This document shows positions 1 to 32,375 of a stretch of DNA of 32,438 nt, one piece after another. The notes under the pieces were generated by a model. The model ran no database searches and was not told where the DNA came from. It was given only the letters and a program-made list of their open reading frames with translations. The translations under genes were made by a program, and so were the position numbers. How positions within the stretch are numbered: the stretch's first letter is position 1; every line of letters starts with the position of its first letter. The DNA is taken from the NCBI GenBank assembly GCA_002269645.1, contig NIVC01004885.1, positions 1 through 32,438 of the forward strand. Direction: 5' to 3'. The stretch comes from Macrostomum lignano. Lineage: Eukaryota.

Positions 1-113
1 AAGTCTTTAAATGCGTATACTCAATAATTAAAAGTATCTGGCAACAATAGAAATCCTGTTTGTTTTTTCAACTGCATTTCTTTCAAAGTTTCTTTAGCAT
101 TCAATGCATAAAT

Positions 114-118
114 GAAAC
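114..118 (+). repeat. Target-site duplication, left copy (GAAAC)
   Basis: Identical 5-mer flanks both element ends (114-118 and 4362-4366). Confidence 0.93.
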
Positions 119-334
119 TGTTAGCACTGTGATGAACTTTTATTTATTAGAGAATGCACTTTGCTTAGTAGCCGTCAACGGCTGAGAATCCTATTGATGT
201 CTATGGACATTTGTACAGTTCAATTCGGTGGCTTAAAGAGTTGCCAAAATATAATTGAAAAGACCAAGCGTCTGCAGAGTTAAGCTAAAGGCTGAGACTC
301 GATCAATTTTCTTACTCGTCCCAAAAAACGAACA
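119..334 (+). repeat. 5' LTR (216 bp)
   Basis: TGTTAGCACTG...CGAACA. Matches 4145-4361 except 3 substitutions and one extra A in the A-run. TATA-like TATAAT at 250-255. Confidence 0.97.
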
Positions 335-3300
335 CTGGCGACGACGGCTGGTCTTATCGAGCCTCTGGAGACAGAAGCCCCAGCGGAAATTGAGCGCTGG
401 TTCCAACGCTTCGAAGCAGTTTCCAAGCTTAACAAGTGGGATGACACCGCTCAGAAGTTCGCCCTCATCGCACACCTCGGCAAGAAGGCCTTCGCACTGT
501 TGGCGGATGCGCTATTGCCAGATAAGCCTGACGCCAAGACCTACGCTGATCTGAAAACTCAGCTGATCAAGGAGACGAAAGCGGCGAAATCCGAGATTGC
601 ATACCGGTACGCGTTCCATCACCTCAAGCAGGACGACGGCGAAGACGTTTCTGCCTACGCAAGAAGGCTGCGACTGGGTTCGGAGAACTGCGGCTTTTCA
701 ACCGCCGAACTGAATGACCGCCTGCGGGACCAATTTATCTTCGGATTGTCGAACAAGGAGATCGTCAGAAAGTTGCTCACGGAGAAACTGAAAGATCTGA
801 CGTGGGAAAAAGTAACTACGGTGGCCAATGCATGCGAGGCCGTAAGTCGCGGCGAGAGACAAATCTCAGGAGGCGAAATTCTACATGTCAAGTCAGATCC
901 TCCTTCGACATCGAAAGCCCACAAGCCAGCGTACCAGAAAAGCGACCAGAAGAACGGCCAATTGTGCCAAGTCAAGTGCTTCTGCTGCGGCAAGGAAGGA
1001 CATACAAAGGACCAGTGCCACCACCGGACTAAGACATGCCTTCAGTGTGGTAAGGTTGGTCATCTCAAAGCAGTTTGCAGGTGCGGACCGAACAAAGGTG
1101 GACAACGGCCTTCAACGAGCAACAAATGGTCACAAGGAGGCGGACGGCATCCAAGGAGCAGAGTCAGAGCAATCGACGATGCAGCTGATCAAGTCGGGCA
1201 CATTTTCTCGATGATGACGCCGGAAGATGGTCGTGGAAGCAGAAGGATAACGCGACATGTAGTAGTCAATGGTACGAAAATCAAGATGCTACTGGACACC
1301 GGGTCGTGCTCAACGTTCGTGTCAAGCTCGGTGTTTCAAAGCCTACTCGAACCAGCAAATGTAAGGCCCACAAGCAGACGATTCGCTGCGTATCAAGGGG
1401 ATCCAGTGCTAGTGAAAGGCGAAGCTATTGTGAACGCCAAGCTAAACTCAGTAAGTTCCGACCTAACTCTGTTTGTGGTGGACAACCCAAAAGCCGAATC
1501 TATCTATGGCCTAGATTGGATTGCTGCCCTTGAGCCAGACCTCTACACTTTTATTACAAAATGTACGGTGCCTGAGGAAGACGGCTCGAATCCTACAACG
1601 GCGTGCTCTGTAAAAAGATTTTCTGTATCATTGGCCATTGAGGCGGGAGCAAAGCCCATCTTTTTTAAACCTCGGCAAATTCCATACGGGATTCAGGACG
1701 ATGTCAAGGCCGAGTTGAAGAGAATGGAAGAGGCTGGACAGCTCCAGAAGGTGGAATCCAGCGAGTGGGCTACACCCATTGTCTGTGTTCGAAAGCAGTC
1801 TGGAAAGGTTCGGATTTGTGGTGACTACAAGGTTACCCTCAACCCACTGCTGAAAGACATGGTGTCAACAACGCCCACAATTGACGAAGTTCTGTCAAAA
1901 CTAGGCCGTGCCCGCCGATTCTCTACGTTGGATCTATCAAATGCGTACCTCCAAGTACCGGTGGATGAAGACAGCAGCGTGATGCTGACGTGGAGCACTC
2001 CGTTCGGCTTATACAGGCCCACTGCATTGGCATATGGAGTAAAGCAAGCACCAGCAATTTTTCAGTCATTCATGGACAGGTTGCTTCTAAACATAGAAGG
2101 TGTCATTTCCTACCAAGATGACATTCTTGTGTGGGGTTTCAACCAACAGAGTCATGACAACAGACTGTCCAATGTGCTACGAATTTTAAAGGAGAGTGGA
2201 CTGAGCATTAACGAGGAGAAATGCACTTTTAACAAGCCATCTATCATGTTCCTGGGATATGAGATCAGTGAAAACGGCATTCGTCCACCACCAAAGAAAG
2301 CCAAGGAGATTGCAGGATTAGAAGAGCCAAAGAATCTCAAGCAGCTGCAGTCATTTATCGGGATGGTCGATTTCTACGGACGGTGTATCAAGAATCTCGC
2401 GAGCCTGAAAGAACCTCTAACGAAACTGACCAGGTCAGGAACGAAGTGGGCATGGGGCCCAATCGAGCAGAGAGCCTTTCAGAGCATCAAGGACGAACTA
2501 CACAATGCAGTCGCTCTCAAGCCTTTTGATCCATCAGATAAGATCGTTCTCACTACTGACGCGTCACCATCGGGACTTGGTGCAGTCCTCGAGCAGTCGT
2601 CTGGGCCCGTAATATTCATTTCAAAGACTCTAACTCAAGCAGAGCGCAACTATGCTCAAACTGAACGCGAGGCCCTCGCCATTGTATGGGCTGTGAAGCG
2701 CTTACACAAGTATTTGCTGGGACACAAGTTCGTCATTCGCACAGACCACCAACCGTTAAAGTTCATCTTTGATCCTGGCAGATCCTTGTCAACTGTTGCT
2801 GCAGCGAGAGTGCAACGCTGGGCAATCACTTTGATGAGCTACGAATACGCCATTGAGTGCAAGAGATCTGCTGAGATTCCCGTGGCCGATGCCCTGTCAA
2901 GACTGCAGAACAGCACGTCTGAAGGAGAGCAGTTTGACATTAGCTCAGTGCAGGACTGCCTACTAGATTTTCCAATCAACAAGGAGCGTTTGAGAAGACA
3001 ATCGAAAGAGGATTCAGAGCTCCGGAAGTTATTCGCTCAAGTCAAGTTTGGCTGGAATGCAGAAGGACTTCGAGAACTACAACAGTTTAGCCGATTCAGG
3101 GACGAGTTAGTCATTGAGAATGGATTGCTGTACAGAGGTATTCGGCTGGTTGTACCAAAGCAGGAGCGTTCTGCAACTTTGCGATTGCTGCACGAAGGAC
3201 ACATCGGACCAGAAAAGATGAAATCCATAGCTAGAAAATGCGTCTGGTGGCCTGAAGTAGATCGAGACATCGAAAAGTATGCGAAAGGATGTAGTTCGTG

Positions 3301-4123
3301 CCAGGAAAACAAGGATCATGGGGCCACCCGACAATGGACTTCGTGGCCGGATGAGACCGAATGCTGGTCAAGAGTTCACATGGACTACGCAGGGCCTATG
3401 AAGGGAGGAAACTACATGTTGGTACTGATTGATGCGTTCAGTAAATGGGCTGAAGTTCACGTGACTAAGGGAACCACTTCATCTGAGACAATCAAGCGAC
3501 TGCGAAGAACGTTCGCCCAAGAAGGCGTGCCCGTGACTATTGTTTCCGACAATGGACCTCAATTTGTATCGAAAGAAATGCAAGGTTGGTTAAAAGGAAT
3601 CAACTGCCGACATGTTCTCACACCACCGTATCATCCAAGGTCAAATGGACTGGCCGAGCGCTTTGTGAGAGATTTAAAAAATCACGTCCGAGCCGCTGAA
3701 GAAGACGACCTTCAGAGTTGCGTCGACCGGTTTCTGCTTCAATACCGGAACGCGAAACATTCTACGACCGGAAAATCGCCCTCTGAGCTGATGAGAGGTC
3801 ACCTACTTCGCACCCCTGCATTTTCTCTGGCACGTGAGCCAGTCTGGGTGAAAACCTACAACAACGAGATGACAAAGTGGAAATCTGGCGAAGTGGTGGC
3901 AACAGAGGGAAAGGTTGTGGTCGACGTTGAGCTGGAGGACGGAAGGCGTGGACGCTACCATCGTGAACAGACAAAGCCAAGGAGTTCCGGTTCCGATGAC
4001 CTGGTGGAGACGCAGACTGAAGAACATGTGCACACGGATCAAGAGTCTGGTCTTCGGAGAAGTAATCGCCATCGGCAAGTACCAAGGCGACTTGAGTACC
4101 GCAAGCTTGGTGTACCTACCTAG
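335..4123 (+). CDS. gag-pol: Gag-Pol polyprotein (~1262 aa if initiated at CTG 335; start uncertain)
   Basis: Frame is open from 296 to TAG 4121-4123. Gag-like sequence (ERWFQRFE...LIAHLG...LLPDKP) lies upstream of the track's TTG at 500. CX2CX4HX4C x2 at ~977-1080; protease LLDTGS (DTG 1295-1303); RT YQDD (2111-2122); RNase H TDAS...EREAL...TDH; integrase HHCC zinc finger plus HMDYAG / SDNGPQF / NGLAERF (DDE). Confidence 0.93.
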   Translation: MATTAGLIEPLETEAPAEIERWFQRFEAVSKLNKWDDTAQKFALIAHLGKKAFALLADALLPDKPDAKTYADLKTQLIKETKAAKSEIAYRYAFHHLKQDDGEDVSAYARRLRLGSENCGFSTAELNDRLRDQFIFGLSNKEIVRKLLTEKLKDLTWEKVTTVANACEAVSRGERQISGGEILHVKSDPPSTSKAHKPAYQKSDQKNGQLCQVKCFCCGKEGHTKDQCHHRTKTCLQCGKVGHLKAVCRCGPNKGGQRPSTSNKWSQGGGRHPRSRVRAIDDAADQVGHIFSMMTPEDGRGSRRITRHVVVNGTKIKMLLDTGSCSTFVSSSVFQSLLEPANVRPTSRRFAAYQGDPVLVKGEAIVNAKLNSVSSDLTLFVVDNPKAESIYGLDWIAALEPDLYTFITKCTVPEEDGSNPTTACSVKRFSVSLAIEAGAKPIFFKPRQIPYGIQDDVKAELKRMEEAGQLQKVESSEWATPIVCVRKQSGKVRICGDYKVTLNPLLKDMVSTTPTIDEVLSKLGRARRFSTLDLSNAYLQVPVDEDSSVMLTWSTPFGLYRPTALAYGVKQAPAIFQSFMDRLLLNIEGVISYQDDILVWGFNQQSHDNRLSNVLRILKESGLSINEEKCTFNKPSIMFLGYEISENGIRPPPKKAKEIAGLEEPKNLKQLQSFIGMVDFYGRCIKNLASLKEPLTKLTRSGTKWAWGPIEQRAFQSIKDELHNAVALKPFDPSDKIVLTTDASPSGLGAVLEQSSGPVIFISKTLTQAERNYAQTEREALAIVWAVKRLHKYLLGHKFVIRTDHQPLKFIFDPGRSLSTVAAARVQRWAITLMSYEYAIECKRSAEIPVADALSRLQNSTSEGEQFDISSVQDCLLDFPINKERLRRQSKEDSELRKLFAQVKFGWNAEGLRELQQFSRFRDELVIENGLLYRGIRLVVPKQERSATLRLLHEGHIGPEKMKSIARKCVWWPEVDRDIEKYAKGCSSCQENKDHGATRQWTSWPDETECWSRVHMDYAGPMKGGNYMLVLIDAFSKWAEVHVTKGTTSSETIKRLRRTFAQEGVPVTIVSDNGPQFVSKEMQGWLKGINCRHVLTPPYHPRSNGLAERFVRDLKNHVRAAEEDDLQSCVDRFLLQYRNAKHSTTGKSPSELMRGHLLRTPAFSLAREPVWVKTYNNEMTKWKSGEVVATEGKVVVDVELEDGRRGRYHREQTKPRSSGSDDLVETQTEEHVHTDQESGLRRSNRHRQVPRRLEYRKLGVPT
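336..344 (+). other. Primer-binding site (TGGCGACGA), probably for a tRNA-Ser
   Basis: Starts 1 nt after the 5' LTR and begins TGG (complement of tRNA CCA). TGGCGACGA is complementary to the 3' end of metazoan tRNA-Ser(GCU); the tRNA identity is from recall and not verified for this host. Confidence 0.8.
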
Positions 4124-4135
4124 CTGTTAACTAAT

Positions 4136-4144
4136 GGGAAGGAG
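4136..4144 (+). other. Polypurine tract (GGGAAGGAG)
   Basis: Purine run abutting the TG of the 3' LTR. Confidence 0.85.
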
Positions 4145-4361
4145 TGTTAGCACTGTGATGAACTTTTATTTATTAGAGAATGTACTTTGCTTAGTAGCCG
4201 TCAACGGCTGAGAATTCTATTGATGTCTATGGACATTTGTACAGTTCAATTCGGTGGCTTAAAGAGTTGCCAAAATATAATTGAAAAGACCAAGCGTCTG
4301 CAGAGTTAAGCTAAAGGCTGAGACTCGATCAATTTTCTTACTAGTCCCAAAAAAACGAACA
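4145..4361 (+). repeat. 3' LTR (217 bp)
   Basis: Direct repeat of 119-334, preceded by the polypurine tract and followed by the TSD. Confidence 0.97.
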
Positions 4362-4366
4362 GAAAC
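4362..4366 (+). repeat. Target-site duplication, right copy (GAAAC)
   Basis: Identical to 114-118. Confidence 0.93.
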
Positions 4367-4800
4367 TTTAGCTATGAAACGTTCCTTTCCGGTGCCTTAT
4401 TCGTGAATTCCCTTCACCGGTGTAGGGTTCCATGAGTGTGTATATACTTCAATTGAACTTTCATGGCCAAATGTACTTAGATATTTGTAAATACTTATTA
4501 GGAAGCCACGTGTCCTGCAGGGTAATAGCTTTGCGGAAAATAAATTCCATGCAGACACAATAGCAATTCAGGACACCAGACAGCCAGTTGTTAAACAAAA
4601 AACACGGGCCATTCCGAACCAAGAAGTACATCTCGCATTCCAGTTTTCTGGATTTTCAATATATGCAATTCACTCGCTATACTTGCGCGCTTGGAAGCCA
4701 CAGCAACGTCCACAAGAACGCCGACGGTGCCATAAAAAAACTTGTATTTCCATACAGTCATGATAGTTTCCTGCGTGCAGCAGCATCGTGGGAACTCGCG

Positions 4801-5098
4801 CTATCTCTCTCTCTCTCTCTCTGCCCCGTTTCATGAACAGCGTTCGGAACCTCCCCCGAGGGAGACGATGCTGACGAAAGGCTGTGCAAAAAAAGCCAGA
4901 GAGAATGAGAGAGAAGAGAGAAATATGACTATTAGACGGTTGCCCGGCTTCCGTAGAATTACAGCAACGGCTGCAGCTCCGGCGCACAACGCGCAAGCAG
5001 ACGCGAAAGCAGCCAAACACAGCGGGAAGCCAGCTCGGTTGGAAATTGTTCGGGGATTGATGCGGCATGCGGGAGGCTGGGAGAGAGAGAGAGAGGGG
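4801..5098. repeat. (CT)n and (GA)n microsatellites flanking a GC/purine-rich intronic segment
   Basis: CT run ~4804-4822, GA run ~5081-5095. Confidence 0.7.
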
Positions 5099-5443
5099 AA
5101 CTAGTGGAGATAGGCTACAGCTGGGGCGGCCAGGGTAACGCAGCCAAGCGTTATTGATTTTTTTGACGCGTGCACTTCGGTTCCGAGTGGTTTTCCGGTG
5201 CCAGTTCAGCGCGTATCCTGCACAGTGCATTATGATATTATAATATTATTATAATATTATTTTAGCAACGTAGTGCAGTCAGCACAGTGCTACTAGAACT
5301 ATACTTCTGCGGTAGATCATTTTGTGTGACTCTGCTTCGGTTTTATATGCAAGAATCTCATTATTTAGATTTGCATTCCACGCTTAGGGATATGATACAT
5401 TGCCCGCTTAAAATAATCCTGAATTTATTATCTTCATCCTCAG

Positions 5444-5573
5444 GGAGGTATCTGTGGTTCTGGAAAGCCAGGAGGCCACCCAGCTTGAGTTGCACTTCTC
5501 CTACGTGGTGTCGAGGGCTCGATGGAGTCCGAAGTACGACATCCGTGTGTTCAGCAACGAGTCCGCTATGAAG
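5444..5573 (+). CDS. DUF4139 (F37C4.5/MuiA-like) protein, first visible internal exon
   Basis: Acceptor tcttcatcctcag, donor AAG|gtaagg. Encodes EVSVVLESQEATQLELHFSYVVSRARWSPKYDIRVFSNESAMK, matching the family 'SY.V..A.W.P.YD.R' motif. It starts mid-codon, so earlier exons lie upstream of the window. Confidence 0.85.
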
Positions 5574-5812
5574 GTAAGGCATAGAGACTGACGCTTTGTG
5601 AGACAAGTCTATATTCTATATTAGCAGGAATGTTCTAGGCATTCTAGAGCAATGCGTTCGACGACATCCGCTAACTCGTGCACACATGCAAGCGCGTCAA
5701 TACTGTACGATGGCACACACTCATACACACTCACACAGGGTGTACAGCGATCCTGTCTTTCCCATCGTCGCCCCAGGTACTTCCGCATACTCTGCCCTTT
5801 AATCCCTTGTAG

Positions 5813-5955
5813 ATAATCTACTACGGCATGGTGCAGCAGAACACCGGAGAAGACTGGGAGAACGCGCAGATCTCGCTGAGCACCAGCATGCCTGGTGTGG
5901 GCGGTACCGTACCGCCGCTCACGGTTCAAAAGGCTCACTTCAAGTCTAACAAGCC
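5813..5955 (+). CDS. DUF4139 protein exon
   Basis: cccttgtag|...CC|gtaaga. Encodes IIYYGMVQQNTGEDWENAQISLSTSMPGVGGTVPPL, with the family hallmark Q.TGEDW...LSLST..P. Confidence 0.9.
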
Positions 5956-7322
5956 GTAAGATTAAAATAAATCTAAGTAATCCAGCTTATAAATCTGAAT
6001 TATGATTTAAGGGACAGTCTTGAACAGCAGCGTAGTTTTACATGGTTCCTTATTGAGGTTATTAACATGAGCTCAACAGTACAACCATTTCAGCAGAACA
6101 CTTCCTAATGATAGTTGAAGGCTCTTCAGTGTTAGAATACCTTTATTTTGTGTTCCTGTCTATTTTTAAGTGCTACCAATATCCTTGTCTCATCTAAATT
6201 TGCGTTAAACTTATTTGTGTACACACGTATTCTGTTATCTAATTGTGCGAAGAGCATTTGGCTCCTGATTCGAAACTGGCCTTGAAGTCACAGTATTCGA
6301 CAATTATCTTGTACAGGGGTCAAAACTGGGGTTGTCGAGAATTGAGCTATGTTTCAAGTAGTGCGTAGTCGTTATAATGTAGTTAATATATGTAAAATTG
6401 CAATCAGTGTTTTGCTAGCTAATGTTGTCTACAAGCAATGCTAATTGTAGTGGATAACGCACAGTCGCACCAACTATTTCTAGCAATTCTATATAATTTA
6501 GTTCCAGTTTAATCTGATCTGCGCCACGCGTACGTTAGTTATAGCCTTTGTTTTAACAAAATTAATGCGGTCGTATACGTACGCTCGTAGTAGTCAAGCC
6601 ACTTGAGGAAAACCGAGTGAATCCCGGTCCTGCGGTTTTAGATGCTCCAATACACCCTACACTGACATGAAGTTGTCCGCTCTCTGACGCCCCCTGATGT
6701 TTACACAAGTCTCCGCCTCAATATCCGCCCCAATTCACATGATCTTAACTTGACATCAAACTCTGTATAATCGATGGCAATGCCAAGTATATAGCTAGTA
6801 TCTAAATTTAGGCAACCTTCATCGCCATACACAAATTTTCTAAACAGAATGCGTACATTAGGCGAATACCATTTGAAACTGACAAAATTATTAATGGATG
6901 GCTTGAAGCCAATTCACAAATTCAAGTGCAACAAATGCAAAACATTGCTGTCCTATAACCTACATTTACCGAAATCACTAGGCGATATCACCTCAGAATG
7001 GTTTGAATAAAAACAATAAACTATAAACTATAAATCAAGTCATGAGCTAAAAAGCTAGCTAGAGAGCAATGAAACTCGACCAAGTCGTCTGACACGTTGC
7101 ACAAAAACTTTCCTCGGGCAAGCAAACATTCTATTAATTCATTTCTGTCTTCTCGTGAATCCCGGATCATTAGACTGCAACCTGTGCAAATTTGTATCAC
7201 AATTTTGTGTCTGTCAAGTCAATGTTCCGAAATGTTATTATCATATAGCATGGCCTGTACGTACTTAGATCTCGTAGCTACAGAATTAGGTTAACGAACC
7301 ACGAAATTCCCTCACCATCCAG

Positions 7323-23278: not shown

Positions 23279-24907
23279 TCATACAACAGTCGATCTGGCA
23301 TTTTTGATGGACTTTTCGGCCTTTTTCTGCTCGTGAACTATGAGGTCATAGATCAACTCGATGAACTCGCACAGGGTGAGCAGGGACATGCCCAAGTAGA
23401 TGCCCATGATGCCGCCCACGTCAGAGATGAAGTTCTGCAGTCCGTAGTCGATGGAAAAGGTCACCTCGTCGCTGAGAACCCGGTCCGGCTTAAAGTGCAC
23501 CTTCAGTAGGTTGTTTCTCACGTAGGATATCATAGTCGATTCGTTGCTGTTCAGAAGAAATTCAAGCGCAGGTACGCTTAGGTTCTTCGACTTGGCCCGC
23601 ATCAGGGCCTCTGCGATTGAGGTTCTGACGTACCTGCCGACAGAGGACTGTGAGGGCCAGTCGGAGCTGGAGATGCTCGCGCTGTAGGTCAGAGTGTTGC
23701 ATGGCTGTTTGGACTGGCACCTTCTCTTTGTCTCATTGGCAATCAGGTCTACCCGAGCATTTAAATTCTTGTCCCGATAAAACACGAAGAAATTTGGATC
23801 GCCTGTCAGATTCAAAACAAACTTTTTGTCTCTGAGAGGCCACGGGAGCGGACTGATGACACCTGAGAGGTTCACCAGTTCCTGGAACTGCTTGTGGTAC
23901 TCGTAGTAGAAACAGTACGAATAGCTGTACTTGTGGCTGTACGGTGTCTGGTCGTATGGGTTCAAAAACTGGACGTCGCTTGTGTCACTGCTGCAATCGA
24001 ACTGTCCTTCCTTCTTCACGTGTCTGGTCATGATCATATTCACCGTGTGATGCTTGCCAGGTGCCAGCGAGAACGAGTCGACAAAGTCTGATGGGTACTC
24101 GCCGGGCGAAGTGAGAAATATTCGAAAGCCCAATCGCCTATCCAGCGTGTTAAAGTCCCTAACCGACAGGGACCAATCTGACACAGGAACCGGCGTGTCT
24201 TTTGTAATGACATAGTCCTCGATAGGGTGACCGGTCGAGTTCATTCCGGCGAAGCTCGAGTCGAGCAGCAGTGTCACATCGAGGCCAGAGGACAGACCCG
24301 TCTGCAGAACCTTGCTCTGCAAGTCGGCGCTCAGAATCCACCGGTAGCAGCGCATGTACCTTGGGTGGTAGAAGCTGGTTGCTGGCAGAGTTTTGTACTC
24401 TGGTAGGCCGTTCCCGTTACTATAAGTTACGTCGCTCGAAATGACATCCTGCTCCGGTCTGTGCGCCAGCTTGTCCACAAGCAGTCTATACGGAAGCGAT
24501 TGAAGATTGACGAAGGACGTTTCCATAAACATGCTGATTTGTTCATCTGGACTGTCCGCCACGGTGGCAATCTGCTGCTTCAGTACGTAGTCATTAATGC
24601 GCAGTCGCGAGTTGATCTCGTTTGCCGAGTCGGCATCAATATTAGCCGCATAGCTTGCCGAGATTGGGTTTTCGAAGCAAATGTACACGTCCGGGAACTG
24701 GAAGTGTAAACTGTCGGCCTCAAGCGAGGTTGTCACCTGGCGTTGCTGCAGTTTGATTATGAAATCAATGAAGCCCTTGAAGAAGAGGCCGCTCATAAGC
24801 AGGAAAGCCAGCACCCAGGAAAACCGCACGTGCATCGGTTTACCAGTTACAGTACGAGGAAGACCGTGGGCTGTTGTGGCTTTGAGCGCTGAAATCACTG
24901 GAAGCAT
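23279..24907 (-). CDS. DEG/ENaC/ASIC-family amiloride-sensitive sodium channel subunit, 542 aa, intronless CDS
   Basis: True ATG with an in-frame upstream stop. TTAHG pre-TM1 motif; TM1; FPDVYICFENP (FPAVT.CN.N signature); GFRIFL..PGEYP; PC....Y...S...WPS; TM2 FISDVGGIMGIYLGMSLLTLCE with G-x-S filter. Confidence 0.95.
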   Translation of the reverse strand: MLPVISALKATTAHGLPRTVTGKPMHVRFSWVLAFLLMSGLFFKGFIDFIIKLQQRQVTTSLEADSLHFQFPDVYICFENPISASYAANIDADSANEINSRLRINDYVLKQQIATVADSPDEQISMFMETSFVNLQSLPYRLLVDKLAHRPEQDVISSDVTYSNGNGLPEYKTLPATSFYHPRYMRCYRWILSADLQSKVLQTGLSSGLDVTLLLDSSFAGMNSTGHPIEDYVITKDTPVPVSDWSLSVRDFNTLDRRLGFRIFLTSPGEYPSDFVDSFSLAPGKHHTVNMIMTRHVKKEGQFDCSSDTSDVQFLNPYDQTPYSHKYSYSYCFYYEYHKQFQELVNLSGVISPLPWPLRDKKFVLNLTGDPNFFVFYRDKNLNARVDLIANETKRRCQSKQPCNTLTYSASISSSDWPSQSSVGRYVRTSIAEALMRAKSKNLSVPALEFLLNSNESTMISYVRNNLLKVHFKPDRVLSDEVTFSIDYGLQNFISDVGGIMGIYLGMSLLTLCEFIELIYDLIVHEQKKAEKSIKNARSTVV

Positions 24908-26132
24908 TGCCGATCTCGTTAGTTATGTGACTTGTGTGATGCGAAGCTACGGAGATGGTCTCCTGTGCTAATGAATCTATTTTTTTCTGTTTCCCTGGCA
25001 TGCGGTTACTGTGCTCAGAATAACTCATTGGGCAGACTTTTGTGAGTCATGAGGACTCTCCCTGGTCTAGTAAAAAATCCTTAACCAATAAGGGAAGCCC
25101 CTAATGCTGATTAATCCCCACATCGTTTTTTTCAGTTCGTCTCCCTTGACAATTCCCTCTCCCTTGGATCAACGCCCAACCCCCTATCTATTGTTTTATT
25201 TTTACTCAGATCATTGACCACACGTTGAGCCGGCAGAGACCACAGATACTAATATCTGTTATTATATCAATAGTATCAGTGCTAGCGACCACAACCCGAA
25301 AACCTATTAGTCGTCAGCCAGAGCTCAATTCCTAATCGAAGCAATATGGGCGTATTGCTTTCATAATCCCCACAGCGGCACTAAGTGCATTATGGCTACT
25401 ATAGTCTACCTAACTAATCTAAGTTAGGTAGACTATAGGTAGTTAAGCAGTACATCTGATTTGTTAATATTATACGAGCGTATCCAAGTCAGCTGTACTG
25501 CAATAAATAATTAATTTACAAGCTCTCGATCTTGAGTGCATGCGAGTAAATAAACAACTGGGACTAAATTAATTATTCATATTCTGCAGCAGCGTTCATA
25601 ACGAAAGGACACGAAGTCATTTTTATGGTAAAACAACCATCACATTTTCGGTAAAGTAGAAGAGATTAACGATTCGCAAGTAGAGCTAAGCTCAGAAATT
25701 AAAATCAATAAGCTATATCAATTTTAAGCTTATCAACCTCTCTCCGCTGTAAAACCTTCAAAGTTTCATTTTAAAAACTTTTGGCGCATGCCATTATCAA
25801 TACCAATACTCACACAGGCACTGGCTGAACCAATTACAATTTATGAGTCCAATGACAGCTCTCAGCTTGATTGGAAATATACTAGTAGTTAAGCCATATA
25901 TGCGCGAGTTATGGCTAAATTTTGTTTCTAAATTTAGACAATTTGTCAATACCTCAGTTAATAGCTCAGGTAGCTTGCCAGGCATTTTAGGATAGTTATG
26001 ATAATTTGAAAATATGAAAGAGGATTTCACGCCAGCTCAGGGTGCTGAAGGGTAGAGCCAGAAATTCCGTGATCGCAGAAGTCTAGATATATCTAGCTCG
26101 GCGGTCTGGTTCCCGACGTCTGCTAGCGTGGC

Positions 26133-29100
26133 TGTGAGATTCCATCCCAGAGTGTGAGATCCTATCCCAGAGTGTGAGATTCCATCCCAGAGTGTGAGAT
26201 TCCATTCCAGAGTGTGAGATTCCATCCCAGAGTGTGAGATCCTATCCCAGAGTGTGAGATCCTATCCCAGAGTGTGAGATTCCATCCCAGAGTGTGAGAA
26301 TTCATCTCATAATGTGAGATCTCATCCCAGAGTGTGAGATTCCATCCCAGAGTGTGAGATCCTATCCTTGAGTGTGAGATTCCATCTCATAATGTGGGAT
26401 CCCATCCCAGAGGGTGAGATTCCATTTCAGAGTTTGAGATTCCTTCCGAGAGCGTGAGATTCCATCCCAGAGTGTAAGATTCCATCTCATAATGTGGGAT
26501 TCCATCCCAGAGTGAGAGATTCCATCCCAGAGTGTGAGATTTCATCCCAGAGTGTGATATTCCATTCCAGAGTGTGAGATCCCATCCCAGAGTGTGAGAT
26601 TCCATTTCAGACTGTGAGATTCCATCCCATAATGTGAAGTTCCATCCTAGAGTGTGAGATTCCATCCCGGAGTGTAAGATTCCATCCTAGAGTGTGAGAT
26701 TTCTCCCAGAGTGAAAGATTCCATCCCAGAGTGTGAGATTCCATCCCAGAGTGTGAGATTCCATCCCAGAGTGTAAGATCCCATCCTTGAGTGTGAGATT
26801 CCATTTCAGAGTGTGAGATTCCATCCCAGAGTGTGAGATTCCATCCCAGAGTGTAACATTCCATCCAAGAGTGTGAGATTCCATCCCAGAGTGTGAGATT
26901 CCATCCCAGAGTGTAAGATCCCATCCTTGAGTGTGAGATTCCATTTCAGAGTTTGAGATTCCTTCCGAGAGCGTGAGATTCCATCCCAGAGGGTGAGATT
27001 CCATCCCAGAGTGTAAGATTCCATTTCAGAGTTTGAGATTCCTTCCGAGAGCGTGAGATTCCATCCCAGAGTGTGAGATTCCATTTCAGAGTTTGAGATT
27101 CCTTCCGAGAGCGTGAGATTCCATCCCAGAGTGTGAGATTCCATTTCAGAGTTTGAGATTCCTTCCGAGAGCGTGAGATTCCATCCCAGAGTGTGAGATT
27201 CCATTCCAGAGTTTGAGATTCCTTCCGAGAGCGTGAGATTCCATCCCAGAGTGTAAGATTCAACCTCATAATGTGGGATTCCATCCCAGAGTGAGAGATT
27301 CCATCCCAGAGTGAGAGATTCCATCCCAGAGTGTGAGATTCCATCCCAGAGTGTGAGATTCCATCCCAGAGTGTGAGATTCCATCCCAGAGTGTGAGATC
27401 CTATCCCAGAGTGTGAGATCCTATCCCAGAGTGTGAGATTCCATCCCAGAGTGTGAGAATTCATCTCATAATGTGAGATCTCATCCCAGAGTGTGAGATT
27501 CCATCCCAGAGTGTGAGATCCTATCCTTGAGTGTGAGATTCCATCTCATAATGTGGGATCCCATCCCAGAGGGTGAGATTCCATTTCAGAGTTTGAGATT
27601 CCTTCCGAGAGCGTGAGATTCCATCCCAGAGTGTAAGATTCCATCTCATAATGTGGGATTCCATCCCAGAGTGAGAGATTCCATCCCAGAGTGTGAGATT
27701 TCATCCCAGAGTGTGATATTCCATTCCAGAGTGTGAGATCCCATCCCAGAGTGTGAGATTCCATTTCAGACTGTGAGATTCCATCCCATAATGTGAAGTT
27801 CCATCCTAGAGTGTGAGATTCCATCCCGGAGTGTAAGATTCCATCCTAGAGTGTGAGATTTCTCCCCAGAGTGAAAGATTCCATCCCAGAGTGTGAGATT
27901 CCATCCCAGAGTGTGAGATTCCATCCCAGAGTGTAAGATCCCATCCTTGAGTGTGAGATTCCATTTCAGAGTGTGAGATTCCATCCCAGAGTGTGAGATT
28001 CCATCCCAGAGTGTAACATTCCATCCAAGAGTGTGAGATTCCATCCCAGAGTGTGAGATTCCATCCCAGAGTGTAAGATCCCATCCTTGAGTGTGAGATT
28101 CCATTTCAGAGTTTGAGATTCCTTCCGAGAGCGTGAGATTCCATCCCAGAGGGTGAGATTCCATCCCAGAGTGTAAGATTCCATTTCAGAGTTTGAGATT
28201 CCTTCCGAGAGCGTGAGATTCCATCCCAGAGTGTGAGATTCCATTTCAGAGTTTGAGATTCCTTCCGAGAGCGTGAGATTCCATCCCAGAGTGTGAGATT
28301 CCATTTCAGAGTTTGAGATTCCTTCCGAGAGCGTGAGATTCCATCCCAGAGTGTGAGATTCCATTCCAGAGTTTGAGATTCCTTCCGAGAGCGTGAGATT
28401 CCATCCCAGAGTGTAAGATTCAACCTCATAATGTGGGATTCCATCCCAGAGTGAGAGATTCCATCCCAGAGTGTGATATTCCATCCCAGAGTGTGAGATT
28501 CCATCCCAGAGTGTGAGATTCCATCCCAGAGTGTGAGATTCCATCCCAGAGTGTGAGATCCTATCCCAGAGTGTGAGATCCTATCCCAGAGTGTGAGATT
28601 CCATCCCAGAGTGTGAGAATTCATCTCATAATGTGAGATCTCATCCCAGAGTGTGAGATTCCATCCCAGAGTGTGAGATCCTATCCTTGAGTGTGAGATT
28701 CCATCTCATAATGTGGGATCCCATCCCAGAGGGTGAGATTCCATTTCAGAGTTTGAGATTCCTTCCGAGAGCGTGAGATTCCATCCCAGAGTGTAAGATT
28801 CCATCTCATAATGTGGGATTCCATCCCAGAGTGAGAGATTCCATCCCAGAGTGTGAGATTTCATCCCAGAGTGTGAGATTCCATTCCAGAGTGTGAGATC
28901 CCATCCCAGAGTGTGAGATTCCATTTCAGACTGTGAGATTCCATCCCATAATGTGAAGTACCATCCTAGAGTGTGAGATTCCATCCCGGAGTGTAAGATT
29001 CCATCCTAGAGTGTGAGATTTCTCCCCAGAGTGAAAGATTCCATCCCAGAGTGTGAGATTCCATCCCAGAGTGTGAGATTCCATCCCAGAGTGTAAGATC

Positions 29101-31853
29101 CCATCCTTGAGTGTGAGATTCCATTTCAGAGTGTGAGATTCCATCCCAGAGTGTGAGATTCCATCCCAGAGTGTAACATTCCATCCAAGAGTGTGAGATT
29201 CCATCCCAGAGTGTGAGATTCCATCCCAGAGTGTAAGATCCCATCCTTGAGTGTGAGATTCCATTTCAGAGTTTGAGATTCCTTCGAGAGCGTGAGATTC
29301 CATCCCAGAGGGTGAGATTCCATCCCAGAGTGTAAGATTCCATTTCAGAGTTTGAGATTCCTTCCGAGAGCGTGAGATTCCATCCCAGAGTGTGAGATTC
29401 CATTTCAGAGTTTGAGATTCCTTCCGAGAGCGTGAGATTCCATCCCAGAGTGTGAGATTCCATTTCAGAGTTTGAGATTCCTTCCGAGAGCGTGAGATTC
29501 CATCCCAGAGTGTGAGATTCCATTCCAGAGTTTGAGATTCCTTCCGAGAGCGTGAGATTCCATCCCAGAGTGTAAGATTCAACCTCATAATGTGGGATTC
29601 CATCCCAGAGTGAGAGATTCCATCCCAGAGTGTGATATTCCATCCCAGAGTGTGAGATTCCATCCCAGAGTGTGAGATTCCATCCCAGAGTGTGAGATTC
29701 CATCCCAGAGTGTGAGATTCCATCCCAGAGTGTGATATTCCATCCCAGAGTGTGAGATTCCATCCCAGAGTGTGAGATTCCATCCCAGAGTGTGATATTC
29801 CATCCCTGAGTGTGAGATTCCATCCCAGAGTGTGAGATTCCATCCCAGAGTGTGAGATTCCATCCAGAGTGTGATATTCCATCCCAGAGTGTGAGATTCC
29901 ATCCCAGAGTGTGAGATTCCATTTCAGAGTGTGAGATCCCATCTCAGAGTGTGAGATTCCATCCCAGAGTGTGAGATTCCATTTCAGAGTTTGAGATTCC
30001 TTCCGAGAGCGTGAGATTCCATCCCAGAGTGTAAGATTCAACCTCATAATGTGGGATTCCATCCCAGAGTGAGAGATTCCATCCCAGAGTGTGATATTCC
30101 ATCCCAGAGTGTGAGATTCCATCCCAGAGTGTGAGATTCCATCCCAGAGTGTGAGATTCCATCCCAGAGTGTGAGATTCCATCCCAGAGTGTGATATTCC
30201 ATCCCAGAGTGTGAGATTCCATCCCAGAGTGTGAGATTCCATCCCAGAGTGTGATATTCCATCCCTGAGTGTGAGATTCCATCCCAGAGTGTGAGATTCC
30301 ATCCCAGAGTGTGAGATTCCATTTCAGAGTTTGAGATTCCTTCCGAGAGCGTGAGATTCCATCCCAGAGTGTAAGATTCAACCTCATAATGTGGGATTCC
30401 ATCCCAGAGTGAGAGATTCCATCCCAGAGTGTGAGATTCCATCCCAGAGTGTGATATTCCATCCCAGAGTGTGAGATTCCATCCCAGAGTGTGATATTCC
30501 ATCCCAGAGTGTGAGATTCCATCCCAGAGTGTGAGATTCCATCCCAGAGTGTGAGATTCCATCCCAGAGTGTGAGATTCCATCCCAGAGTGTGATATTCC
30601 ATCCCAGAGTGTGAGATTCCATACCAGAGTGTGAGATTCCATCCCAGAGTGTGATATTCCATCCCTGAGTGTGAGATTCCATCCCAGAGTGTGAGATTCC
30701 ATCCCAGAGTGTGAGATTCCATTTCAGAGTTTGAGATTCCTTCCGAGAGCGTGAGATTCCATCCCAGAGTGTAAGATTCAACCTCATAATGTGGGATTCC
30801 ATCCCAGAGTGAGAGATTCCATCCCAGAGTGTGAGATTCCATCCCAGAGTGTGATATTCCATCCCAGAGTGTGAGATTCCATCTCAGAGTGTGAGATTCC
30901 ATCCCAGAGTGTGAGATTCCATCCCAGAGTGTGAGATTCCATCCCAGAGTGTGAGATTCCATCCCAGAGTGTGAGATTCCATCCCAGAGTGTGAGATTCC
31001 ATCCCAGAGTGTGAGATTCCATTTCAGAGTGTGAGATTCCATCTTAGAGTGTGAGATTCCATCCCAGAGTGTGAGATTCCATCCCAGAGTGTAAGATTCC
31101 ATTTCAGAGTGTGAGATTCCATCCCAGAGTGTAAGATTCCATTTCAGAGTGTGAGATTCCATCCCAGAGTGTAAGATTCCATTTCAGAGTGTGAGATTCC
31201 ATCCCAGAGTGTAAGATTCCATCTCGGAGTGTAAGATTCCATCTCGGAGTGTAAGATTCCATCCCGGAGTGTAAGATTCCATCCCGGAGTGTAAGATTCC
31301 ATCCCGGAGTGTAGGATTCCATCCCGGAGTGTAAGATTCCATCCCGGAGTGTAGGATTCCATCCCGGAGTGTAGGATTCCATCCCGGAGTGTAAGATTCC
31401 ATCCCGGAGTGTAGGATTCCATCCCGGAGTGTAGGATTCCATCCCGGAGTGTAAGATTCCATTCCGGAGTGTAAGATTCCATCCCAGAGTGTAAGATTCC
31501 ATTCCGGAGTGTAGGATTCCATCCCGGAGTGTAGGATTCCATCCGGAGTGTAAGATTCCATTCCGGAGTGTAAGATTCCATTCCGGAGTGTAAGATTCCA
31601 TTCCGGAGTGTAAGATTCCATTCCGGAGTGTAAGATTCCATTCCGGAGTGTAGGATTCCATTCCGGAGTGTAAGATTCCATTCCGGAGTGTAAGATTCCA
31701 TTCCGGAGTGTAGGATTCCATCCCATATTGTGAGATTCCATTCCGGAGTGTAATATTACATCCCATATTGTGAGATTCCATCCCAGAGGGTGAGATCCCA
31801 TCCTAGAGGGTGAGATCCCATCCCAGAGTGTGAGATCCCATCCCAGAGGGTGA
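26133..31853. repeat. 20-bp satellite array (consensus GAGTGTGAGATTCCATCCCA), ~285 monomers, with higher-order structure
   Basis: Continuous tandem monomers; diagnostic variant monomers recur at 1159/1160-bp offsets. Confidence 0.99.
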
Positions 31854-32375
31854 GGTGTTATTTTTGTCGTGTATTTATGCCGCTAATCATATTGCTGTTT
31901 TTATGACTAGAATAAAAATTAATGAAATAAAACAAAGCACAATAATTTTTGTTTATTCGAGCTACAAATGATGCGAAAATATGCAGCCGTTGTTTATTAC
32001 AAAATTCCATCCAAATAAAATCTCGCTTATGTCGCTAATTTACGGTCTTTAATACAACAATTTATCGAACTTAAATTCATTCAATAGAATTTAAAGCAGA
32101 ATAGAATTTTCAGCAGCTTGGAAAATTTTGCAGCTGGAAATAATTAGCATGAAAATTAGCGCTGAAAATTTGGTGGAAAAAACAAAGCATGAGATGAAAA
32201 ACTTTAATTCGGCGAAAAATTGCAAAGGTGAAAAAACGTGGATTACAAATTCGACTTTAATTTTCAGTTTTAAGTCAATAAATGTAGCACTCATTTTGTT
32301 ATATAATTACTGAGCACAGAGAGTTAGTTATAAATATATTAGGATAAAATTTTCTGTTCATCTAGTAAGCGCACA

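Follow-up and report, generated by a model that had tools for sequence, protein, structure and literature searches.

A young Mag-like retrotransposon of Macrostomum lignano whose single Gag-Pol probably starts at a CUG formed by the LTR/primer-site junction

Introduction

The Mag lineage is the largest group in the flatworm Macrostomum lignano, with 78 families according to a section of one survey (PMC12801592), and its primer-binding site is described, in passages of another paper, as matching tRNA-Ser or tRNA-Leu (PMC3286476). The element studied here resembles the Mag elements of those passages in its tRNA-Ser primer site, its LTR of about 200 bases and its 5-base target duplication, and several Culex Mag families likewise have a single gag-pol frame (PMC3286476). 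It differs in having no ATG for Gag, a point on which the Mag passages of both sources are silent, as they do not mention start codons (PMC3286476, PMC12801592).

CUG initiation of Gag proteins has been described elsewhere. As is proposed for the present element, the glyco-Gag of murine leukemia virus has a CUG in good context and is a Gag-frame protein made from genomic RNA (sections of PMC3265304 and PMC11775842). PEG10, with a Gag derived from Ty3/gypsy, also has an in-frame CUG start, which in that gene was proven by mutation (passages of PMC2800197). In the literature covered, which leaves most subscription papers and the repeat databases outside, we found neither a mobile retrotransposon in which Gag-Pol starts solely at a non-AUG codon nor an account of a start codon built from the junction of LTR and primer site.

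Results

The window, that is the whole analysed stretch of 32,438 nucleotides (contig NIVC01004885.1, forward strand), contains at bases 119-4361 one young Ty3/gypsy LTR retrotransposon with a single open reading frame; features are on the plus strand unless stated otherwise. The 5′ LTR (119..334, 216 bases, TG...CA) and the 3′ LTR (4145..4361, 217 bases) differ by three substitutions (157, 190 and 317) and one extra A, and the target-site duplication GAAAC lies directly outside them (114..118 and 4362..4366). Together with the polypurine tract (4136..4144) and a primer-binding site, the paired TG...CA LTRs and the target duplication complete the set of features by which Ty3/gypsy elements are recognised. 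The frame is open from 296 to 4123 (1275 codons) and encodes Gag and Pol together, as the initial annotation had stated. It comprises a capsid-like Gag domain (335..900; DUF7041 and structure model), two CCHC zinc knuckles (977-1018 and 1037-1078) and, in the same frame as Gag, protease, reverse transcriptase, RNase H and integrase (1259..3637; Pfam). The order Gag-PR-RT-RH-IN is that of gypsy elements, as judged by Pfam and by capsid-like fold scores that are weak. Gag of the Mag lineage carries two CCHC knuckles, and this feature is present here. The element is Mag-like by these features, while the trees described below hold only copies from the same genome. The Gag structure model (pLDDT 66.7) comes closest in fold to retroviral and PEG10/PNMA2 capsids, but no match reaches E<=0.001; residues 1-15 have a pLDDT below 50, and the need for the N-terminal IEPLE motif can therefore not be judged from the model. 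Canonical heat-shock elements of the published pattern, a trait of the heat-inducible Mag family Mlig-id115, were not found in the LTR at 119-334.

Further along the window, host exons at 5443-5571 and 5811-5955, which may be DUF4139-like, are joined across a GT-AG intron in four of four runs taken as RNA. No upstream host exon falls within 1-6500, which probably places the element in a host intron. On the minus strand, 23279-24922 is a single-frame gene for an amiloride-sensitive sodium channel (ENaC/ASIC family; Pfam ASC, E 4e-45), and about 26000-31900 is taken up by a satellite array of 20-base units whose minus strand carries long open frames.

As had been noticed before, the first in-frame ATG lies at 1211, downstream of both zinc knuckles; it is directly followed by a second one (1211..1216), and codon 1211 reads ACG in four of 13 copies compared. 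The 292 codons of 335-1210 are thus free of Met, which has a chance of about 0.6% at the Met rate of the remaining frame; the corresponding region holds one Met in the related lineage b and two to six in ATG-bearing relatives. On the 5′ side, the earlier claim of a single in-frame ATG at 203 has to be corrected to two (197 and 203), but both are indeed terminated at TAA281, and TAA281 and TGA293 are present in both LTRs as claimed. The resulting short LTR frame (197..283, 28 and 26 codons) is possibly situated 5′ of the site where transcription begins. In lineages b and d the LTR ATGs are likewise terminated 5′ of the junction, so that neither these lineages nor the family of the window (lineage a) have an LTR ATG whose frame extends into Gag. 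The A-run before the junction varies in length (6, 7 or 9), showing that the upstream frame is not kept.

At the end of the LTR, the codon CTG at 335..337, the proposed start, joins the spacer base C to the TG with which the primer-binding site opens. Its context, with A at -3 and G at +4, and its overlap with the primer site, which begins with TGG at 336, are as first described. Outgroup families of this genome show CA-A-TGG at the junction, with the ATG in frame with Gag, whereas the clade of the window reads CA-C-TGG. CTG335 aligns with the ATG of families g and h, and its -3 and +4 bases as well as its register to the conserved IEPLE motif (356..370) are those of the outgroup ATG, and the proteins of families g, h, i, j, k, m and n, all with an ATG junction, start with MATR or MATT at the homologous codon. 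The alignments show the start codon of the related families to be made of the one-base LTR/primer-site spacer and the TG of the primer site. Among 150 protein homologues, 116 align near the N-terminus, and 85 of these start at most 8 residues from codon 335, the most frequent offset being 0 and the most frequent first residues MAT. One homologous protein (P0001, 66% identity), which is not among the DNA loci compared, has its annotated Met at the codon-7 position.

The lineages with a C spacer form one clade in the trees of Gag (99/99, 30 rows) and reverse transcriptase (100/99, 25 rows), nested among the families with an ATG junction. These trees were built from raw copies of the same genome only and rooted at midpoint; rows with short cover were left out (L098 and L111 for Gag; L090, L097, L160, L100, L098, L111 and L153 for RT). 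In a second Gag tree the base of the clade is unresolved and a long-branch ATG family falls inside it, and the matching RT tree keeps the clade (97/99). A census of junctions covered 90 of the first 100 among 328 pattern matches (control 109). Among the matches listed, 67 had Gag and fell into 24 clusters, which became 22 families after one duplicate was merged and one deleted copy of the 119-4361 family was removed. Of the seven families that lack another ATG close to the start of Gag, six carry spacer A and the remaining one is the CTG family, whereas the spacer is C, G or T in 13 of the 15 families with their own ATG, again among the matches listed (Fisher p 0.002 for spacer A against absence of another ATG, with families classified by eye and kin not independent).

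The primer-binding site (336..351) makes nine perfect pairs with tRNA-Ser(GCU), followed by five more around two mismatches; no tRNA matched it over 18 bases. Sixteen of 27 primer-site pattern matches share one common 3′ end, and the four that were tested are all tRNA-Ser(GCU) genes. This end pairs perfectly with 336-344 and with five further bases, its CCA lying over CTG335, and the duplex has -22.9 kcal/mol, against -23.3 in family g. The full 18-base tRNA complement occurs next to the C spacer in deleted copies whose LTR end is that of lineage a (L105) or lineage b (L203 and L215). This identifies the primer as tRNA-Ser(GCU), a type found in the Mag lineage, and shows that the spacer comes from the element and not from the tRNA. 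Primer pairing accounts for the conservation of TG in CTG335, which leaves the C as the one informative base. In retroviral reverse transcription, it is established that the spacer is the first base to be copied when the primer is extended. A primer switch in lineage n was considered and dropped, since none of the five pattern matches was a tRNA. At three loci (L155, L053 and L261) at least 40 bases of tRNA-Ser(GCU) complement follow the LTR, beyond the usual stop at 18 bases.

Lineage f lies inside the C clade and has kept the C spacer, and carries its own ATG four codons further on, within a tRNA-matching stretch that resembles a duplicated primer site. Lineage f appears to have regained its AUG through a copy made from the primer tRNA. 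Some copies among its loci (L143, L144, L093, L204, L205 and L219-L221) have a primer site rewritten by the tRNA, and the start region occurs in two lengths, one base apart, both with an in-frame ATG and an open frame.

We consider it likely that the single Gag-Pol of the 119-4361 family is started at the CUG of 335-337 by scanning ribosomes, since the relatives have ATG at the same junction, the family itself has CTG, and its frame still evolves as a working gene (see below). What is expected of a non-AUG gene at the sequence level was found here: no usable in-frame AUG, and a near-cognate codon that is conserved, in good context and at the homologous start position. Further near-cognate codons lie in frame (ACG at 341 and 344, ATC at 356 and CTG at 365), and it is conceivable, although unlikely, that the main start is ACG344 (344..346) or the ACG at 341. 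ACG344 likewise stands in strong context (A at -3, G at +4), lies 5′ of IEPLE and is retained in the aligned relative lineages and lineage c. Most outgroups have AGG in its place; the change to ACG maps to the base of the CTG clade and deviates from the tRNA complement. However, it is not homologous in position to the outgroup ATG, the ATG family n has ACG at the same place, and the codon is GCG in one young full-length insertion. A weak further point against it is that Ala-Thr at codons 2-3 is kept by synonymous changes in one decayed insertion. CUG is generally the stronger near-cognate codon. Taken together, the near-cognate readings, with CUG335 or a neighbouring ACG as start, are quite probable. 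A hairpin 3′ of CTG335 was not above shuffles (z 0.16).

A DNA search of the same genome, in which 40 of 67 candidates were scored, gave 19 loci of 98-100% over the whole query, representing 14 distinct target-site duplications. In all 19, CTG follows the CA of the LTR, and ATG does so in none. The 17-base junction motif is preceded by C in 28 of 28 exact genome matches. The concern that sister copies might carry ATG is not borne out, as both the near-identical loci and lineage b have CTG, and a point mutation or base error at 335 is excluded by the 19 loci and the 28 motif matches. Four further matches of the junction motif have a different third codon, three of them without Gag; the three loci whose motif has ATG as its third codon were rejected as relatives, being unrelated repeats without Gag. 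Another set of 11 loci also had no Gag. The junction is shared by the older lineages b, c, d, e and n. Lineage b (85% DNA identity) is represented by two independent full insertions, which have CTG and whose first ATG comes no earlier than about codon 200. In lineage d (66%; five loci that are one insertion), ATG occurs in frame at codons 40 and 48. The deep lineages c, d and n are represented by one decayed insertion each. The insertion of lineage c has ATG at codon 8. Lineage e is decayed as well, with one copy carrying ATG at codon 3 and another CTA at codon 1; the decayed copies overall show CTA, CCG, or ATG at codon 3 or 8 in the start region. A metagenome scan gave three loci of 27-32% identity, too distant to be of use. 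Among the other loci, L175 is a young-family copy with three LTRs, a tandem with a shared LTR and one target duplication, and L046 and L047 have an ATG and then the protease region directly 3′ of the primer site, without Gag.

Between the window and lineage b, dN/dS over Gag codons 4-190 was 0.115 and 0.134 at dS 0.56 and 0.50, that of reverse transcriptase 0.083 and that of integrase 0.10-0.13; codons 4-12 differ synonymously only. Values for Gag against lineage d were 0.12-0.14 at a dS of 1.7-2.0, near saturation, and those against the decayed lineage c were 0.34-0.38. Within the young family (the window and 13 insertions), shared variants comprised 13 synonymous and 12 replacement changes, that is 52% synonymous compared to 26% expected (p 0.005), and private variants 68 and 115. 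These comparisons show purifying selection on the frame in the lineages without AUG. The 119-4361 family therefore appears to be autonomous, as both recent insertions (14 target duplications) and selection on its own frame (dN/dS about 0.1) were found. It seems quite unlikely, by comparison, that the frame is a relic of a family that no longer makes its proteins and depends on ATG-bearing relatives for copying in trans. Such proteins could come from lineage f, a young lineage with intact frames and a Gag identity of about 69%, most lineage a insertions have deletions or frameshifts, and the contrast between shared and private variants in the young family is not significant (p 0.19). However, the low dN/dS across Gag and Pol when two lineages without AUG are compared at a dS of 0.5, the synonymous excess among the shared variants and four insertions that are open to the last codons argue against a relic. 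The LTR pairs of the young insertions are 0-3 substitutions apart.

With CUG335 as the favoured start, an AUG or a ribosome could still be delivered from upstream, by read-through or reinitiation after the LTR frame, by a cis-splice, or by a leader spliced inside the LTR, all of which we regard as improbable. The motif ATGTCTATGG is kept in the LTRs of lineages a, b and d, and an acceptor-like YTNCAG site lies within the LTR at 272-277. Against this, the stops at 281 and 293 intervene, the frame from LTR to Gag varies among copies and lineages, and no AG dinucleotide occurs in 297-359. A leader joined at 278 would open a frame of just two codons, in register with Gag, and lineage b lacks the site. 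The contigs of the four runs, taken as RNA, show no upstream joint among those listed, and reinitiation would still require a near-cognate codon.

The second proposal of the initial annotation, that trans-splicing of a spliced leader at 362 or 371 provides the AUG, is very improbable. The host leader does have a terminal ATG, trans-splicing affects roughly 30% of genes, and the published acceptor motif is YTNCAG (passages of PMC8629364), and leader-bearing retrotransposon transcripts are suspected in flatworms, with leader reads making up 0.001-0.1% of the data (passages of PMC12582326). In-frame codons do follow both proposed acceptors (AG at 360-361 and 369-370), and AG369 is retained in lineages a, b, d and e. 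However, both sites read GAG and depart from the published motif; no conserved in-frame YTNCAG acceptor was found near the Gag start, and the CAGs at 375, 384 and 420 are out of frame. AG360 was removed in lineage b by a synonymous change and both AGs are absent in lineage c, while AG369 belongs to a Glu codon that is also kept in the ATG-bearing lineage f. Splicing at either site would cut into the conserved IEPLE, which contains both GAGs, and the synonymous-only differences at codons 4-12 between lineages a and b also speak against a splice there. In all four runs, contigs pass through 335-371 without a break; none has a different letter at 335-337, and the joints listed include none in this stretch. 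This evidence is weak, since contigs drop rare forms and multi-copy DNA or transcription of the host intron could give the same cover, and a rare spliced form would be compatible with it. Contig joints at 1404-1450, 2610-2824 and 3034-3362 were rejected as splicing, as they match genomic deletions in copies.

Discussion

Our analysis favours CUG335 as the probable start of Gag-Pol in this family. The first proposal of the initial annotation, a CUG start overlapping the primer site, is kept as an argument from sequence comparison and gains from the homologous ATG of the outgroups, the fixation of CTG in young copies and purifying selection. Points against it are the C spacer that lineage f retains next to its own ATG, the single decayed insertions behind lineages c, d and n, the altered start regions of decayed copies, the ATGs of lineage d, the second Gag tree, the non-significant contrast between shared and private variants in the young family, and the lack of an unusual hairpin. 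The AT-rich TATA- or poly(A)-like motif at 248..256, a putative promoter mark, has counterparts at comparable distance in the LTRs of lineages b, d, f and g, and would place the transcription start near 280. The leader would then be A-rich, free of AUG and about 55 bases long. A fraction of the scanning ribosomes would initiate at CUG335 and some possibly at ACG344, whereas the remaining ones would leak to the out-of-frame AUG at 441 (37 codons), and the output of Gag-Pol would be low. The annealed tRNA-Ser(GCU) would cover the last two bases of CTG335 and the +4 base, so that primed RNA would be closed to initiation.

A wider reading is possible, and we offer it tentatively. An autonomous clade may have replicated over a long time (synonymous divergence up to about 2) with this CUG as its sole Gag-Pol start. 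The first base of the codon would template the first reverse-transcribed nucleotide and the other two would pair with the CCA end of the tRNA, such that one three-base site would set expression and toggle between translation and priming, and one sister lineage would have regained an AUG from the primer tRNA.

In many families of this genome, start codon and primer site share bases. The junction ATG, the junction CTG and the ATG apparently copied from tRNA form a natural series in a flatworm that is capable of transgenesis, and this series is suited to asking how retroelement RNA divides between translation and packaging. A non-AUG start of Gag-Pol would offer a simple heritable way of lowering expression. 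Annotation pipelines would mislabel elements of this type as Gag-truncated or dead.

The ATG-junction families g-k, m and n of the same genome share junction, primer and register with the 119-4361 element, but have spacer A instead of C. Glyco-Gag, in the sections cited, is an accessory extended form whose CUG lies 264 bases 5′ of the normal AUG, away from the primer site, and it is not the sole route to Gag-Pol (PMC3265304, PMC11775842). PEG10, according to the cited passages, is a domesticated mammalian gene that is immobile and also has an AUG 102 bases downstream (PMC2800197). The known CUG starts of retroelements, glyco-Gag and PEG10, are extras next to an AUG, whereas the 119-4361 element, which belongs to a spreading family, appears to depend on a non-AUG start for its sole protein, structural and enzymatic parts alike.
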